A DNA stretch of 5,513 nt. Source: a virus. Lineage: Duplodnaviria > Heunggongvirae > Uroviricota > Caudoviricetes. Shown in pieces: positions 1-5,513 of this stretch (position 1 is its first letter; every line of letters starts with the position of its first letter). The notes under the pieces are model-generated. The model ran no database searches. It was not told the origin of the DNA and saw only the letters and a list, made by a program, of their open reading frames with translations. A program made the position numbers and the translations under genes. The stretch is from IMG/VR virus record IMGVR_UViG_2713896790_000006, one strand, 5' to 3'.

Positions 1-481
1 TTTCTTCCTCCGTTGCAATTTCCAGATCTGCAGCATCCTGAAGCGGCGCAATATGCTCACTGGCTACCTGCATCAGGTTGTTTTTTGTTTCTTCCGCCTC
101 CCGGATCCGGAACAGTTTTTCTGCTTCCGTATCCTTCACCCAGGCTGTGCCGTTCCACTTCTGAAACTCCCCTTCCGGCGATAACCAGGTAACATTTTCC
201 GGTAACGGACCGAGTTCAGAAATAAATAACGCGTCGCCGGAAGCCACGTCATAGACGGTTTTTCCCCGATGATCTTCAACGAGATGCCACGATGCCTCAT
301 CACTGTTGAAAACAGCCACGAAGCCTGCCGGAATATCTGGCGGTGCAATATCGGTACTGTTTGCTGGCAGACCTGTATGAGGCGGAATATATGCGTCACC
401 TTCACCAATAAATTCATTAGTTCCGGCCAGCAGATTATAAATTTTTATGGTCTGTGGTTGTTCACTCATTCTGAATGCCAT
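1..481 (-). CDS. tfa: Tail fiber assembly protein Tfa (lambda Tfa-like), partial: start codon in window, 3' end lies beyond the window start
   Basis: Absent from the supplied ORF track (no in-window stop). Manual reverse-complement translation from ATG (complement of 479..481) is open for 160 codons to position 2: [131 protein letters not shown]... This matches the phage lambda Tfa N-terminal region as I recall it. GAGG Shine-Dalgarno (complement of 490..493) lies 8 nt upstream. The ATG overlaps the stf stop by 1 nt (TAATG). Confidence 0.88.
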
Positions 482-3444
482 TATGCAAGCCTCACAATAT
501 AGTTAAATGCGATGTTTTTGACGGTGTTTTCCGCGTTACCAGCAGCGTTAACGGTGATGGTGTGTCCATGTGAACCAATCGCAACGGAGTGCGTATGAGC
601 ACCAATACCGACAGTATGTGCATGTGCGCCTGCGCTTGCAGCAGTGCCGGACAGCGAGTGGGTATGAGCACCATCTGATGATGTCTTCCCTGCATTACGA
701 GTCTGGCCACTACCGCTTGTTGTGCTCATAATCCCCGCGCTTAGATTTGAAATCGCGGTATAACCATTAGGGAAAATGCTCGTGTTCGTGCCACCAAATG
801 CACCGGAACTCTTGTGTTGGTGCGCACCGGCACTATTTGCAGTCCCGCTAATACTATGGGTATGCGCCCCGGTGTTATTCGTGGATTTGGTTCCGTAATC
901 AAACGACGATGTGTTTTTCGTCCCCAAATCCGTACTGGATGCGCTGGCGCTGTGGGTGTGCGATTTAATGCCGTCCTGTTCCTGAGACAATACGGCACGA
1001 CCACTGGCGGGTTTGCCCTTAATCGTCCAGCCACGCATATCAGGGATCACGCCTGACGGATAAGCGGCTGCAAGTTTCGGGTATGCAGATTTGTCAAAAG
1101 TCTGCCCCTGCATCAGGGCATAGCCAGACGGAACGGTATCTGATGGCCACGGGATTGGTGCGCCAGGCGGATAAAACTGCTCTGATGGCGTATAGAGTGA
1201 ATAAACTGTACCGTCCGTTAACCCTTCCGGCTTATTAGCAGAATATGCTGGTGACGTATGAATCGTCACGCTGGCATTACTGGTATAATCCCATTGAATA
1301 TTTACACCAGTCGCATAATTTCCGATTGCAACGTAAATATCGTAAGTATCACCAGATGTATTGACCCAGGCAAAATTTGTAAACCCTGTCGATGTGCGCT
1401 GCCATAAAGCACCAGTAATCCCCTTCGGATTACCATTACCTGCACGCAAAACAAGTTCAGATATACCTGCCTGTTGAGGTGACCCCACGTTAAATCCCGC
1501 GCCACCAATCAACGTAATTGAAACAACAGAACTCGCCTGTGGCATGGTTACCGTTGCTAATTTGAACCAACCAGCACCACCGCTGAATGACATTGTTGTT
1601 GAGTTAAGCGTACCAATATCTTTCGGCGTCAGTGTTATATCCGCTGAAAGCGCCTTACCATTCACCTTACGGGCAGAAGGTACCCGACCATTCGCGTTAT
1701 CATTAGCTGCTTTCACTGCTTTCGGTGTCGCGGCAAGCGTTTCAGATGCGCTGTTGGTTGCACTACTGAGCTGGACAATTCCTTTTTGTGCTGTCGTAGC
1801 GTTCTGAGCAGTATATTTCCCGTTAGCAAGGTCATAGGCTGCCTTTACCGACTTTGGCGTTGCCGCCAGCATTTCAGATGTGCTGTTGGTCGCGTTGCTA
1901 AGCTGAACTATCCCTTTCTGTGCTGTCGTTGCATCCTGTGCGGTGTATTTCCCGTTAGCCAGCTCATACGCGGCCTTAACGGCTTTTGGTGTTGCCGCCA
2001 GTGACTCGGAAGTGCTGTTAGTCGCACTGCTGAGCTGTACTATCCCCTTTTTCGTCGTGCTCGCATCCTCAAGCGCGACGGCGGATGCAATATCCTCTGC
2101 CCGTTTTGCCGCTGTCTCGGCGCGCGTTGCCGCGGATTCCGCCGTACTTTTGCTCTGAGCTGCCGCCGTCGCACTGCCAGCTGCCTCTGTCGCCTTCGTG
2201 GATGCCGTCGTGGCGCTGCCCTTTGCTGCTGACGCCTGTCTGGTCGCCTCATCTTTTGAAGCAGACGCAGATAATGCCGATGACGCCGCCGAACTGGCGG
2301 ACGATGCGGCAGCCGTTTTTGAGGATTCTGCGCTGGTTTCCGACGCTTTCGCGTTCGTCTCGGATGTCTTCGCTGCGGAAGCAGACCTCGCTGCTGCGCT
2401 GGCCTGTACAGCGGCTTCGCCAGCCTTCGTTGTGGCTGTTGAAGCGGACGATGCAGCACTTTCTGCCGATTTTCCGGCGGCGGTGGCACTGGCTGAGGCC
2501 TGCCCGGCATTTGTTGACGCGGCGCTGGCAGATGAGGCAGCCGCTGTTTTTGAGTCTGCTGCTGCGGAGGCACTCTGTGCTGCTGCCGTCTCAGAAGACT
2601 TAGCGTTCGTCTCGGACGTTTTTGCCGCCTTCGCGGAATTTCCTGCCGCTGTTGCCGAGGAGGCTGCACTACTGGCGCTCGAGGCTGCGCTCGTTTCTGA
2701 TGATTTTGCCGCCTCTTTTGAGGCCGCCGCATCCCGGGCTGAGGTGGCAGCTTCTGACGCCTTCGTGGTCGCGGCGGATGCAGAAGTGGCTGCTGATTGT
2801 TGTGACGCTGCCGCATTCGTTTCTGACGTTTTCGCGGCACTGGCACTGGTAGCTGCCGCGCTTTTTGAGGACTCTGCAGCGGCAGCACTTTTTGATGCTT
2901 CAGTAGCCTTTGTTGATGCCGTTCCTGCGCTGGAAGACGCTGACTGAGCCGACGTCGCGGCCTGCCCGGCTGATGTGCTGGCTGCACGTGCTGAGCCTGC
3001 AGCATCAGTCGCATGGGTTGCCGCCTCACGGGCTGATGTGCTGGCATCGCTGGCTGACTTCTTCGCGGCTGCTGTGTTCTGCGCCACTGCGGACGCGTTA
3101 CGCGCCACCTCTTCCACCATCAGTTCAAAACGGCGCAGTGCCTCAGGACGGGCATCATCCTCCGTCATGGCACCGAGAAAATCATTCAGCGTACCGGGTC
3201 GGGAATCTTCATACACGGTGATGGTCCCGGCATGTGACGGCGGGAATCCTTCCACCAACAGAATAACGCTGTACTGACCGTACTCAACGTCCATGCTGTA
3301 ACGCCCGGCCTCATCCGGATTTTCTGAGGCCAGCGTGTTCACCACCACCGTGGTGCTGTTACGTTTTGCTTTCAGCTGGATTGTGCAGTTCTGTACCGGT
3401 TTTCCTGTGCCGTCTTTCAGTACACCTGAAATCTTTACTGCCAT
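481..3444 (-). CDS. stf: Side tail fiber protein Stf (lambda Stf / T4 gp37-like tail fiber), full length, 987 aa from ATG
   Basis: Single uninterrupted minus-strand ORF. N-terminus [26 protein letters not shown]... is the conserved lambda Stf anchor region. Followed by a long Ala/Ser/Thr-rich low-complexity shaft, three tandem ~44-aa repeats ([35 protein letters not shown]), the conserved tail-fiber motif [47 protein letters not shown], and seven HxH His boxes near the C-terminus, ending ...[11 protein letters not shown]. The track starts at a GTG at 3450 (MNM...); I prefer the ATG at 3442..3444, which gives the conserved MAVKISG start with a G-rich SD-like run 5 nt upstream. Stop is TAA (complement of 481..483). 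Confidence 0.93.
1690..2058 (-). repeat. In-frame tandem repeat inside stf: about three copies of a 129-132 bp unit (43-44 aa phage tail-fibre repeat)
   Basis: Translated copies: [43 protein letters not shown] / [44 protein letters not shown] / [37 protein letters not shown] (third copy degenerates). At DNA level the motif tatttcccgttagc recurs at 1814 and 1946, a 132-bp period. Confidence 0.85.
2059..3132 (-). repeat. Low-complexity Ala/Ser/Thr-rich coding region of stf (fiber shaft) with degenerate short repeats
   Basis: Stf residues ~105-462 consist almost entirely of A/S/T/K/E, with recurring AAKTSETNA(K/A)(S/A)SET... units. The GC-rich, codon-biased DNA lacks stops in several frames, which explains the long overlapping track ORFs 2040..3047(-), 2198..2947(+), 2085..2603(+) and others. 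Confidence 0.7.
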
Positions 3445-3453
3445 ATTCACCCC

Positions 3454-3482
3454 ACAAAAAAGCCCGCCTGAACAGGCGGGCT
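3454..3482 (-). terminator. Rho-independent terminator between lom and stf, oriented for minus-strand transcription
   Basis: Perfect GC-rich inverted repeat: 3461..3468 agcccgcc pairs with 3475..3482 ggcgggct, loop tgaaca. On the minus strand it is followed by TTTTTGTGGG (complement of the A-run at 3456..3460). It lies 27 nt downstream of the lom stop and about 10 nt upstream of the stf ATG. Confidence 0.7.
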
Positions 3483-3508: not shown

Positions 3509-3998
3509 TCAGAACTTATAACCGACACCCACGATGNNNNNNNNNNNNNNNNNNNNNNNNNNNNNNNNNNNNNNNNNNNNNNNNNNTGTTGTCAGTTACG
3601 CGGAGATAATCCCCGGAGAAAGTCGACACACGGCTGTAAGCCACACCCGCCATCGCATACGCGCTGAACCATTCATTCACGCGCACAGACGGCCCCACCA
3701 TCACGCTGAACCAGCGGTTACGCACGGAATCTTCATGCCAGCGGGTATCGCTGTAACGGGTAAGCTGGCGATTCTTGTCTCCTGCATAGCTGAATGACGT
3801 CACCAGCCCCAGTGTGTCCGTAAACTCATAACGGTATTTCACGTTAATCCCGTTAAGATCATCGCTGCCGGGAACGTTCGTCGAGGCATGAAGATACCCC
3901 GCGCTCAGCGTGGACTGATGTTCAGATGCCCATGCAGGCGCACCGGATACGGCCAGACAAATGGCTGCGGACAAAATGGCGGCATAAAGTTTACGCAT
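3509..3998 (-). CDS. lom: Lom outer membrane protein (Ail/Lom/OmpX family beta-barrel; lambda lom moron), interrupted by an N-run
   Basis: Translation from ATG (complement of 3996..3998): [137 protein letters not shown], with a signal peptide and AWA/S cleavage site. This matches lambda Lom as I recall it. After the N-run the sequence encodes ...IVGVGYKF-stop (TGA, complement of 3509..3511), a typical outer-membrane-protein C-terminal strand ending in Phe, but in a different frame from the N-terminal part. GAGG SD (complement of 4004..4007) is 5 nt upstream of the ATG. The track ORF 3516..3998 stops at a frame-shifted TAA that is an artefact of the N-run length. Confidence 0.85.
3537..3586. 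other. Run of 50 N (assembly gap or masked segment) inside lom
   Basis: Fifty consecutive ambiguous bases. The lom flanks are out of frame across it, so the run is not length-preserving. Confidence 0.95.
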
Positions 3999-4019: not shown

Positions 4020-4046
4020 AATAAAAAAGGCACCATTTCTGGTGCC
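4020..4046 (-). terminator. Rho-independent terminator between J and lom, oriented for minus-strand transcription
   Basis: Perfect 7-bp stem: 4029..4035 ggcacca pairs with 4040..4046 tggtgcc, loop tttc. On the minus strand it is followed by TTTTTTATT (complement of 4020..4028). It sits 22 nt downstream of the J stop and about 20 nt upstream of the lom ATG. Confidence 0.75.
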
Positions 4047-4067
4047 CTTATATGGGTTATAACAATT

Positions 4068-5513
4068 TCAACGAATACTGATGCCGGAAGCGGCTTTTTT
4101 GGTCACAATCACCGTACAGTCGGTGATATTACCTGCCCACTGATTGCCTTTATGGAAAACCTTAAACTCCAGAGTGACGCTTCCCCTGCCACTCGGCATA
4201 TCAATAACCGCACTGTAGCTACCGGGAATGGCCCCTTTAGTTTCTCTGGATGCGATTAATACACCGTTTTGGCGAACTTCAAAACCATAACCCGTGTATC
4301 TTGTACCTCCCGGGTTATTACCACTTCCCGGATCGCTATACGCTATTCCGTTAAAGATAATGGGCGGAATAATGATTTGACGGTCAAAGTTATGATCATC
4401 GCTTATGGTGACTGTAACCGTCCCGTTTGGTGTTTCCGTGTTACCCCACGTACCAGCCTGTTTCGGAAATGATTTGGATACAGCTTTAACGAAATCCCCT
4501 CTGACCTGAGTCGCCTCCAGCATGCCCTTAATCGTACAGTTTTCATTTACCGTGACATTGTTGAGCGTCCCGGCGTTCGCATTCACACTGCCACTGATAT
4601 CCGCATTTTTAGCGGTCAGCTTTCCGTCTGATGTCAGGGAAAATACCGGTGGATTTCCACCGCTGGTAATGGTGGGGGCCGTCAGGCGCTTCAGGAACAC
4701 GTCGTTCATGAATATCTGGTTGCCCTGCGCCACAAACATCGGCGTTTCATTCCCGTTTGCCGGATCAATAAACGCGATACGATTGGCGGCAACCAGAAAC
4801 TGGCTCAGTTTGCCTTCCTCTGTATCCTCCATGCTGAGGCCAATACCCGCGACATAATGTTTGCCGTCTTTGGTCTGCTCAATTTTGACGCCCCACATGG
4901 CATTCCACTTATCGTTAGCATCCTTCCACTCTTTCGAAAACTGCTCCAGTCTGCTGGCGTTATCCTCCGTCAGGTCGACTTTTTCCAGCAGCTCTTTACC
5001 GAGATGGGATTCGGTTATCAGGCCTTTGAAAAAATCCAGGTAACCTTCGGCATCATCGCTCGCCCGACCAACAGCCTCCACGAATGCCGATTTGCCAACG
5101 GTGTTCACACTGCGAACGTAAAAATAATAATTATGGCCCGGCCTGATATTGATACTGGCGGCTATCCAGTACAGCGCCGTGCCAAGATAGCGTGCTGTGG
5201 TTTCAACCTGCCTGATATCCGCAATCCGCTTTTCCGAGAACCAGAACTCAAACTGTACCGTCGGGTCATAAACCGCAAGATGCGGCGTGGCGGTTATCTG
5301 AAAATAGCCCGGCGTCAGCTCAATCCGCGACGGCGCTGCCGGTGCGGCAATCCGGAACGATACCGACGCCGGATCGCCCTGCTGCTCCCACGCATTTACT
5401 GCCCGGACTGTCAGCCTGTAGTTCCCCAGAGCCAGTTGTGTGAAGCGGTAAGTGGTTTCCGTCGTCCGGGCCGTGCTGACCAGCCGCTCACTGCCGTCAT
5501 CCGCTGCCACGGT
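4068..5513 (-). CDS. J: Host specificity protein J (central tail fiber / tip attachment protein), C-terminal ~481 codons; 5' end lies beyond the window end
   Basis: Minus-strand frame is open from the window edge to a TGA (complement of 4068..4070). The track's initial M is a GTG at the window edge, not a true start. The translation (...[63 protein letters not shown]...[54 protein letters not shown]...) matches the C-terminal third of lambda J as I recall it. Its position immediately upstream of lom reproduces lambda J-lom-stf-tfa synteny. Confidence 0.9.

Follow-up and report, generated by a model that had tools for sequence, protein, structure and literature searches.

The window (that is, the whole 5,513-nucleotide stretch of viral DNA analysed here, IMG/VR record IMGVR_UViG_2713896790_000006) very probably carries the side tail fibre gene stf and its partner tfa from an E. 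coli Qin-type lambdoid prophage, the role of Stf being assigned by homology to Ur-lambda. Judged from its sequence, the 987-amino-acid product is a complete lambda-type Stf in which all modules are present, and the gene is a modular mosaic that is not the stf of lambda. The pair appears to be the undeleted counterpart of the truncated stfQ–tfaQ remnant of strain K-12. Genes in the window follow the order J–lom–stf–tfa, with the edges falling inside J and inside tfa, and a run of 50 N in lom marks no lesion but a 160-nt stretch that was not read. The best match to the window is 99.3% identical and another near relative is 98–99% identical, and lambdoid phages match 80–84% of the window at 95–96% identity.

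As the first-pass annotation had proposed, stf (481..3444, minus strand) runs uninterrupted for 987 codons, from the ATG at 3444 to the TAA at 483..481, an assignment backed by the list of open reading frames, Pfam, PDB matches and a RefSeq homologue. The listed frame spans 481..3450 and would give 989 amino acids from a GTG at 3450 or 987 from the ATG at 3444; the latter (MAVKISG...) is the start modelled in the solved lambda Stf N terminus and the RefSeq start for 2964-nt homologues. Direct reading places GTGGGG, then TGAAT, then this ATG, and we infer that the first two (3445..3455, minus strand) form a candidate ribosome-binding region of stf. The gap between lom and stf also holds a terminator-like hairpin with a T-run (3461..3482, minus strand), for which a terminator scan gave a stem of 9 pairs (GC, 7/9) followed by TTTTTTGT. 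A chance reading frame is ruled out by the 987-codon length (by our own arithmetic, as many open codons would arise with a probability of (61/64)^987, or approximately 1e-21), by homology and by dN/dS.

At its other end, stf reads ...GCATAATGGCA, so that the stop codon TAA (483..481) and the ATG of tfa (481..479) have one base in common within ATAATG (479..484, minus strand), and GAGG at 493..490 lies 8 nt upstream of that ATG. Annotated coordinates place the same one-base overlap in lambda, in PhiR26_1 and in the E. coli relatives LSN03-016011/A (hereafter LSN03) and KH_005. From position 481, the tfa frame (1..481, minus strand) stays open for 160 of approximately 191 codons up to the window edge. 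The translated part matches Pfam Caudo_TAP (PF02413, E = 2.6e-23), is identical to lambda Tfa at 154 of 160 residues (96%) and agrees with the 191-residue TfaQ of KH_005 across all 160 residues in the window. The earlier suggestion of a Tfa partner with overlapping stop and start codons thus stands on the sequence at 479..484, the translation and the lambda Tfa match.

All modules of Stf are encoded on the minus strand. The tail-attachment domain and linker (residues 1–101; 3142..3444) match Pfam PF08400 (phage_tail_N) over its full length (E = 1.3e-71), and residues 1–94 match 9e7m, the solved lambda 'tail fiber protein' (E = 1.4e-51), which confirms the conserved N-terminal anchor noted at first reading. 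Residues 1–101 are identical to Ur-lambda at 94 of 101 positions and to PhiR26_1 at 101 of 101; in Ur-lambda, Stf residues 1–91 form a 12-copy collar where gpV meets gpM (PMC12617516). There follows an Ala/Ser-rich, heptad coiled-coil shaft (residues 102–455; 2080..3141), recognized by the spacing of its alanines, which over residues 105–460 peaks at 3.5 and 7.0 residues with a power of 10.1, whereas none of 200 shuffles exceeded 2.4. This periodicity agrees with the coiled-coil model of Ur-lambda Stf, in which the proximal coiled coil spans residues 102–393 (PMC12617516), and the shaft of approximately 350 residues corresponds to that element. The coiled coil is longer here than in Ur-lambda, with a conserved motif at residues 447–460 rather than at 341–354.

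Three tandem 44-residue Phage_fiber_2 repeats (residues 456–590; 1675..2079) are matched by Pfam PF03406 in three stretches (E = 1e-51), and Tandem Repeats Finder reports a 132-nt period with 2.4 copies at 1736..2046. The repeat occurs once in Ur-lambda and twice in PhiR26_1; the third repeat of the present protein matches the Mu tail fibre S structures 5yvq and 8ju3. Beyond the repeats lies a middle module without a Pfam family (residues 591–755; 1180..1674) that showed no homology to its positional counterpart in Ur-lambda, in PhiR26_1 or in the K-12-type stfQ fragment. It does recur in P1-like, Mu-like, ST64B and T4-like tail fibres and matches PHROGs 3299, 21552 and 6722. An AlphaFold2 model, built from a 34-sequence alignment whose homologues are mostly partial proteins from short contigs, is all-beta with medium confidence (pLDDT 73.9, pTM 0.71), and in a Foldseek search it matched part of the tailspike-like protein WceF (6tgf; E = 1e-7, TM 0.57–0.60) and, further, a phage Gp37 model. 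We therefore describe the module as a predicted beta-sandwich common to tailspike-like and tail fibre proteins, which is as far as the fold matches reach.

The C-terminal part consists of a collar and outgoing needle strand (residues 756–877; 814..1179; Pfam Collar at 761–808) with His-x-His motifs 1–3 at residues 829, 861 and 875, a distal head of the StfQ variant that is the presumed receptor-contact region (residues 878–926; 667..813), and a returning needle strand with motifs 4–7 (residues 927–987; 484..666). The collar and outgoing strand are identical to Ur-lambda at 104 of 130 aligned columns and to the K-12-type stfQ fragment at 117 of 122; for the returning strand the counts are 56/70 (Ur-lambda), 59/61 (PhiR26_1) and 61/61 (K-12-type stfQ fragment). 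Residues 744–987 align with the T4 gp37 tip (2XGF, gp37 residues 785–1026; E = 9.2e-83) through the last residue, so that the 244 C-terminal residues are matched end to end, the final approximately 30 residues are alike, and the seven His-x-His motifs of Stf equal the number counted in the aligned gp37. The first reading had taken the C terminus to be complete, and both the alignment and the motifs agree; a homology comparison for a shortened receptor-binding end revealed no truncation relative to the T4 gp37 tip. The remainder of T4 gp37 and its attachment to the virion are unrelated to Stf, and its head between motifs 3 and 4 is unlike the present one in both length and sequence. T4 fibre assembly uses gp38 and gp57A, and no Tfa.

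Ur-lambda agrees with the present pair in gene position, in the one-base stop/start overlap and in the conserved parts of the protein (N-terminal domain, 93% identical; first 326 residues, 83%; collar and needle, approximately 80%). It differs in having a Stf of 774 residues (213 fewer than here; its Tfa has 194), an unrelated middle module and eight rather than seven His-x-His motifs. PhiR26_1, which shares the J–lom–stf–tfa order with mEp460 and with the window, encodes a 1025-residue Stf that is 100% identical in the N-terminal domain and 94% in the coiled coil, yet has a different middle module, a different head (17/44) and two fibre repeats rather than three. The first-pass annotation had also contrasted the intact gene with the frameshifted stf of laboratory lambda. 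The contrast itself is real: the laboratory (PaPa) record PV340536 annotates stf as two pieces (orf-401 and orf-314, whose N- and C-terminal parts are homologous to the present Stf) and, at stf nt 1184 (codon 395), is one C short where an intact-stf lambda record reads CCCC, whereas the gene described here reads through without a break and contains nothing homologous to the segment in which lambda's frameshift site lies. The contrast nevertheless overstates how rare an intact gene is: among 5426 complete E. coli genomes, 1276 hold at least 80% of this stf and 5108 hold Stf-like DNA. Intact stf looks common among natural prophages, with the frameshifted laboratory gene as the special case, and the gene is an ordinary one, with near-identical copies in hundreds of sequenced genomes.

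Among the relatives, the Stf proteins of LSN03 (WP_087650878.1, 'prophage tail fiber N-terminal domain-containing protein') and KH_005 (WP_115725822.1) have 987 residues, the same module order and the same J, lom and tfaQ neighbours as here. The LSN03 protein differs by 6 amino acids and its gene by 35 nucleotides, 33 of which fall within the N-terminal third at 2836..3351, a cluster that looks like a recombination tract. Across 2964 nt, the two nearest relatives differ from this stf by 28–29 synonymous and 7–8 non-synonymous changes (dN/dS 0.08–0.09), a ratio that shows, at the level of codon comparison, purifying selection on stf. The relatives occupy the Qin site, between rspB and ydfJ, where tfaQ, pinQ and ydfK accompany them, and the K-12 Qin remnant ('stfQ–tfaQ–pinQ) shares this chromosomal site; by way of these relatives, the window is probably of the Qin type. 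In K-12, the region from nohA to the C-terminal part of stf has been lost and the module preceding the collar differs. An exact-match scan of one-genome-per-species contigs recovered a K-12-type Qin remnant with an identical head, and the K-12-type fragment in L004 is identical to the present Stf in both the head (49/49) and the returning needle strand (61/61).

On the basis of homology to Ur-lambda, we propose that Stf trimerizes and is attached to the tail with the geometry described for that phage, although trimer assembly, attachment geometry and adsorption role are all extrapolated from this comparison. The coiled coil of approximately 350 residues, the three repeats and the beta-sandwich would hold the collar, the metal-stapled needle and the head outward, and the head (residues 878–926) may be the first part to touch a receptor on the outer surface, in a reversible manner. 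Such a contact would speed adsorption ahead of the irreversible binding of the J central fibre. Translation of Tfa would begin at the overlapping start codon, and the protein would act as a chaperone for the folding of the C-terminal tip.

Which receptor the head would contact is a separate question. We take residues 878–926 to be a gp37-type head, with boundaries set by the gap in the T4 gp37 alignment between His-x-His motifs 3 and 4, together with the layout of the T4 gp37 tip structure. The head is identical to Ur-lambda at 15 of 50 aligned columns, to PhiR26_1 at 17 of 44 and to the K-12-type stfQ fragment at 49 of 49, whereas the flanking needle is 80–97% identical, and the gaps in the T4 gp37 alignment coincide exactly with it. 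Over 165 nt, its DNA agrees with that of K-12 DH1 at every position (100% identity), and it is present in 994 of the 5426 complete E. coli genomes. Ur-lambda Stf and Tfa accelerate adsorption through OmpC (PMC12617516; PMC7291167; bioRxiv 10.1101/2022.09.30.509847), but as the present head is only approximately 30% identical to that of Ur-lambda, OmpC binding should not be assumed. The fibre may instead function without OmpC, with a StfQ-type head that recognizes a different porin or some lipopolysaccharide structure, and we regard this as only slightly less probable than its opposite. Stf specificity can be swapped, as a lambda–P2 chimera that targets lipopolysaccharide demonstrates (bioRxiv 10.1101/2022.09.30.509847), and for Gifsy-1 Stf targeting is reported to be tied to O-polysaccharide (PMC12312913). 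Against this, T4 gp37 and Ur-lambda Stf, whose fibre tips are functionally exchangeable (PMC7291167), both use OmpC despite their unlike sequences (PMC7291167, PMC12617516), so divergence alone is no proof of a new receptor. Searching the literature for stfQ brought up no work on its receptor or function.

A second alternative is that the gene pair, intact as it is, sits inside a decaying, non-inducible prophage that makes no fibres, and that the genes persist as a cassette for recombining lambdoid phages; we consider this less likely than not. In its favour, K-12 retains just the truncated stfQ with tfaQ and pinQ, the LSN03 prophage has an IS66-family element inserted in its tail module as well as a tail assembly gene with a frameshift, and the early region of KH_005 contains an IS fragment along with pseudogenes. 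Deletions running from nohA to stf are suggested for other strains too by database entries in which the Stf C terminus is fused to a terminase small-subunit domain, and lambda picks up markers from the stf/tfa regions of Qin and Rac at a frequency of approximately 2e-6 (PMC3945230), consistent with use as a cassette. Opposing this reading, dN/dS is approximately 0.09 across the gene, which speaks for selection having acted on the protein recently, the window itself bears no damage (the N run in lom included), and the 48-kb KH_005 prophage is apparently complete, with int, xis, Q, lysis genes and full head and tail modules (that is, the whole set for integration, regulation, lysis and virion assembly). 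A third reading, in which the stf C terminus and tfa form a phase-variable invertible segment under PinQ (compare Mu G, P1 C and e14 P), is very improbable and we reject it: in the relatives a serine recombinase gene (Pfam Resolvase and HTH_7) does lie approximately 100 bp past tfaQ and convergent with it, but no inverted repeats longer than 27 nt or above chance quality were found that link stf to the tfaQ–pinQ spacer, neither the window nor a 50-kb stretch of KH_005 matched a gix/hix/pix-type consensus when as many as 3 mismatches were allowed, and there is no second, inverted set of fibre tip or tfa.

Returning to the reading of an intact stf with its tfa partner in a Qin-type prophage, we regard its main value as correct annotation: what survives in K-12 as a stump is present here undamaged. 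The gene also illustrates how tail fibres are assembled from exchangeable modules (that is, anchor, coiled coil, repeats, beta-sandwich, needle and head), and an intact natural Stf/Tfa pair with a non-lambda head could be used as a source of parts when lambda-based delivery particles are to be retargeted, as in the lambda–P2 chimeras. More speculatively, the StfQ-type head may confer a non-OmpC specificity, full-length Qin-type prophages may be live phages that use it, and the K-12 remnant may be a capturable cassette of tip and chaperone, a combination that we consider unlikely as a whole. If this reading of the StfQ head is true, infecting lambdoid phages could capture the K-12 tip-plus-chaperone cassette by homologous recombination.

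All genes in the window lie on the minus strand (ORF list and sequence reading), starting with J (its C-terminal 480 codons, 4068..5510), lom (3516..3998) and stf. The stf frame, for which a chance ORF was excluded, ends at 481 and can be read from GTG 3450 (989 codons) or ATG 3444 (987 codons); the latter gives MAVKISG..., the same start as modelled in the solved lambda Stf N terminus, and RefSeq places the start of 2,964-nt stf homologues at the equivalent ATG. A GTGGGG precedes ATG 3444 at a distance of 5 nt. The final A of the stop codon (TAA, 483..481) is also the first base of the tfa ATG (481..479), which has GAGG 8 nt upstream and opens a frame from 481 that runs to the window edge, where its translation is cut at codon 160. 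Given this shared A and the single long ORF, the first-pass annotation, which had reported one unbroken stf frame at 481..3444 overlapping tfa, was correct in its coordinates, frame and overlap. Two long ORFs in other frames, of 335 aa (2040..3047, minus strand) and 249 aa (2198..2947, plus strand), run across the Ala/Ser-rich region of stf (GC content approximately 61%). They would encode low-complexity strings rich in Arg/Pro/Gln or in Ala/Asp and most probably reflect the abundance of GCN codons there, not genes.

Upstream, terminator-like hairpins with T-runs (terminator scan, minus strand) directly follow J (4026..4049) and lom (3461..3482) and bracket lom as a separate cassette within the late operon, so that stf–tfa would depend on read-through, such as by Q antitermination. 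Within lom, 50 consecutive N occupy 3537..3586; alignment with the 99.3% identical relative leaves a 110-column gap in the window (lom is 600 nt in relatives), so the run stands for approximately 160 nt and is masked or unassembled sequence, not a lesion. The last 150 codons of J occupy 4068..4517 (minus strand), and the LamB specificity of lambda is probably not shared by this central fibre.

Pfam searches of the 987-aa product recovered phage_tail_N (aa 1–134, E = 1e-71), three Phage_fiber_2 repeats (the first from aa 462; lambda has one) and a Collar domain (aa 761–808). Among solved structures, aa 1–94 match the lambda 'tail fiber protein' chain of 9e7m (E = 1e-51), the last fibre repeat matches the Mu tail fibre S, and aa 744–987 match the T4 gp37 receptor-binding tip (2XGF, E = 9e-83). 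The tfa product matches Caudo_TAP (E = 3e-23, Pfam), is identical to lambda Tfa at 154 of the 160 residues inside the window, and shows no difference from a relative's 191-aa TfaQ over the same 160 residues. These Pfam, structural and Tfa matches bear out the identification as a side tail fibre gene with a tfa partner. A truncated C terminus was looked for and is absent, as the 2XGF alignment extends to a common C-terminal end of 11 residues and Stf carries seven His-x-His motifs (aa 829, 861, 875, 927, 941, 950 and 959), the same count as in the aligned T4 gp37 sequence, whereas Ur-lambda Stf has eight.

Between these ends, aa 105–460 are 38% Ala and 23% Ser, with Ala periodicity peaks at 3.5 and 7.0 residues (power 10.1; the highest of 200 shuffles reached 2.4), and are predicted to form a long in-phase heptad coiled coil. 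This agrees with the published Ur-lambda Stf model, in which StfN (residues 1–91) and a linker (92–101) precede a proximal coiled coil (102–393), a hinge and a distal domain, and in which 12 N-domains, from four trimeric fibres, make up a collar where gpV and gpM join (PMC12617516). The shaft is longer than that of lambda, a conserved 14-residue motif lying at aa 447–460 rather than 341–354. The following module (aa 591–755) falls in no Pfam family and lacks an equivalent in lambda Stf; P1-like, Mu-like, ST64B and T4-like phages carry it in their tail fibres. Its AlphaFold2 model (34-sequence alignment) is all-beta (pLDDT 73.9, pTM 0.71) and resembles part of the tailspike-like WceF (6tgf, E = 1e-7, TM 0.57–0.60) as well as modelled phage Gp37 and EPS-depolymerase proteins; it may be a structural or possibly glycan-contacting knob.

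Comparison with Ur-lambda, the lambdoid phage PhiR26_1 and a K-12-type stfQ fragment (identical residues over alignment columns) reveals a mosaic. The N-domain (aa 1–101; 94/101 and 101/101) and coiled coil (aa 102–455; 204/341 and 334/354) are shared with Ur-lambda and PhiR26_1, respectively, and lacking from the fragment; the middle module is unrelated in all three. The collar and outgoing needle (aa 756–877; 104/130, 113/122 and, in the fragment, 117/122) and the returning needle (aa 927–987; 56/70, 59/61 and 61/61) flank a head (aa 878–926) that matches at only 15/50 and 17/44 in the two phages and at 49/49 in the fragment. His-x-His motifs 3 and 4 flank this head; in the gp37 tip the chain between them forms the distal receptor-contact domain, and it is exactly here that the gp37 alignment is gapped. 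Fold and assembly route thus seem conserved, and the presumed contact surface is of another allele; the specificity of Ur-lambda Stf and T4 for OmpC is therefore not simply transferable. The 320-aa fragment (L004, a K-12-type Qin remnant, 1154..2116; CP178308) has the same head and needle but a pre-collar module of the PhiR26_1 type, which makes the boundary just before the collar a recombination joint.

Lambdoid phages annotated with J, Lom, side tail fibre and tail fibre assembly protein match 80–84% of the window at 95–96% identity, and the best matches in complete E. coli genomes are 99.3% identical over its whole length. Compared with strain LSN03-016011/A, Stf shows 6 residue and 35 nucleotide differences, 33 of the latter within 2836..3351 (516 nt, N-terminal third) and 2 in the other approximately 2,400 nt, a clustering that suggests a recombination tract. 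Against the nearest relatives, dN/dS is 0.08–0.09 (28–29 synonymous versus 7–8 non-synonymous changes). In strain KH_005 the gene sits in a prophage of approximately 48 kb between rspB and ydfJ, with int, xis, dicA/dicC, Q, lysis genes and complete head and tail modules, then J, lom, stf, tfaQ and pinQ; at the same site K-12 DH1 has nohA, a partial stf, tfaQ, pinQ, ydfK, ynfT and a truncated ydfJ. Given these gene orders and head DNA 100% identical to that of DH1, the window would be the undeleted form of the Qin stfQ–tfaQ pair. Database proteins joining terminase domains (PF07471 or PF05876) to the Stf Collar or C terminus (P0007, P0033, P0042, P0097 and P0098) point to deletions in other strains that fused packaging genes to the stf end, as at the K-12 nohA–stfQ junction.

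Alternatively, the window may belong to a decaying prophage in which stf–tfa serves only as a store for recombination: decay is visible in K-12 and in LSN03, whose copy of the prophage seen in KH_005 has a frameshifted tail assembly gene and an insertion of the IS66 family, and the stf/tfa regions of Qin and Rac are sources from which lambda acquires markers at about 2e-6 (PMC3945230). Inversion of a segment by the neighbouring serine recombinase PinQ is disfavoured: pinQ, a Pin/Gin-type gene (Resolvase + HTH_7), is convergent with tfaQ in every relative (L003, L004, L005 and L007; in L005 at 47303..47893, after a 98-bp spacer), but no crossover-like inversion sites (gix/hix/pix-type consensus at up to 3 mismatches, scanned in the window and in 50 kb of KH_005), no meaningful inverted repeats, and no alternative fibre segment or second gene set were found; pinQ looks like an orphan invertase.

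The stf gene itself is intact, complete in its modules, modular and under purifying selection, and functional side fibres, as the first-pass annotation proposed, are a reasonable expectation by analogy with Ur-lambda and T4. Stf would trimerise with Tfa chaperoning the C-terminal tip, its N-domains would dock where tube meets tip, and the coiled coil and distal modules would keep the head distant from the tail; reversible binding of the head to an outer-surface receptor could then speed adsorption before J engages its own receptor. Such genes are widespread in natural prophages: Stf-like DNA occurs in 5,108 of 5,426 complete E. coli genomes, and, counted as DNA with or without an open frame, at least 80% of this stf occurs in 1,276 and its head variant in 994, while in laboratory lambda the frame is broken by a single missing C at stf nt 1184. 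As a prophage gene pair, the window's stf–tfa is routine and already catalogued; mildly interesting are the StfQ-type head and how clearly stf displays the shuffling of modules.
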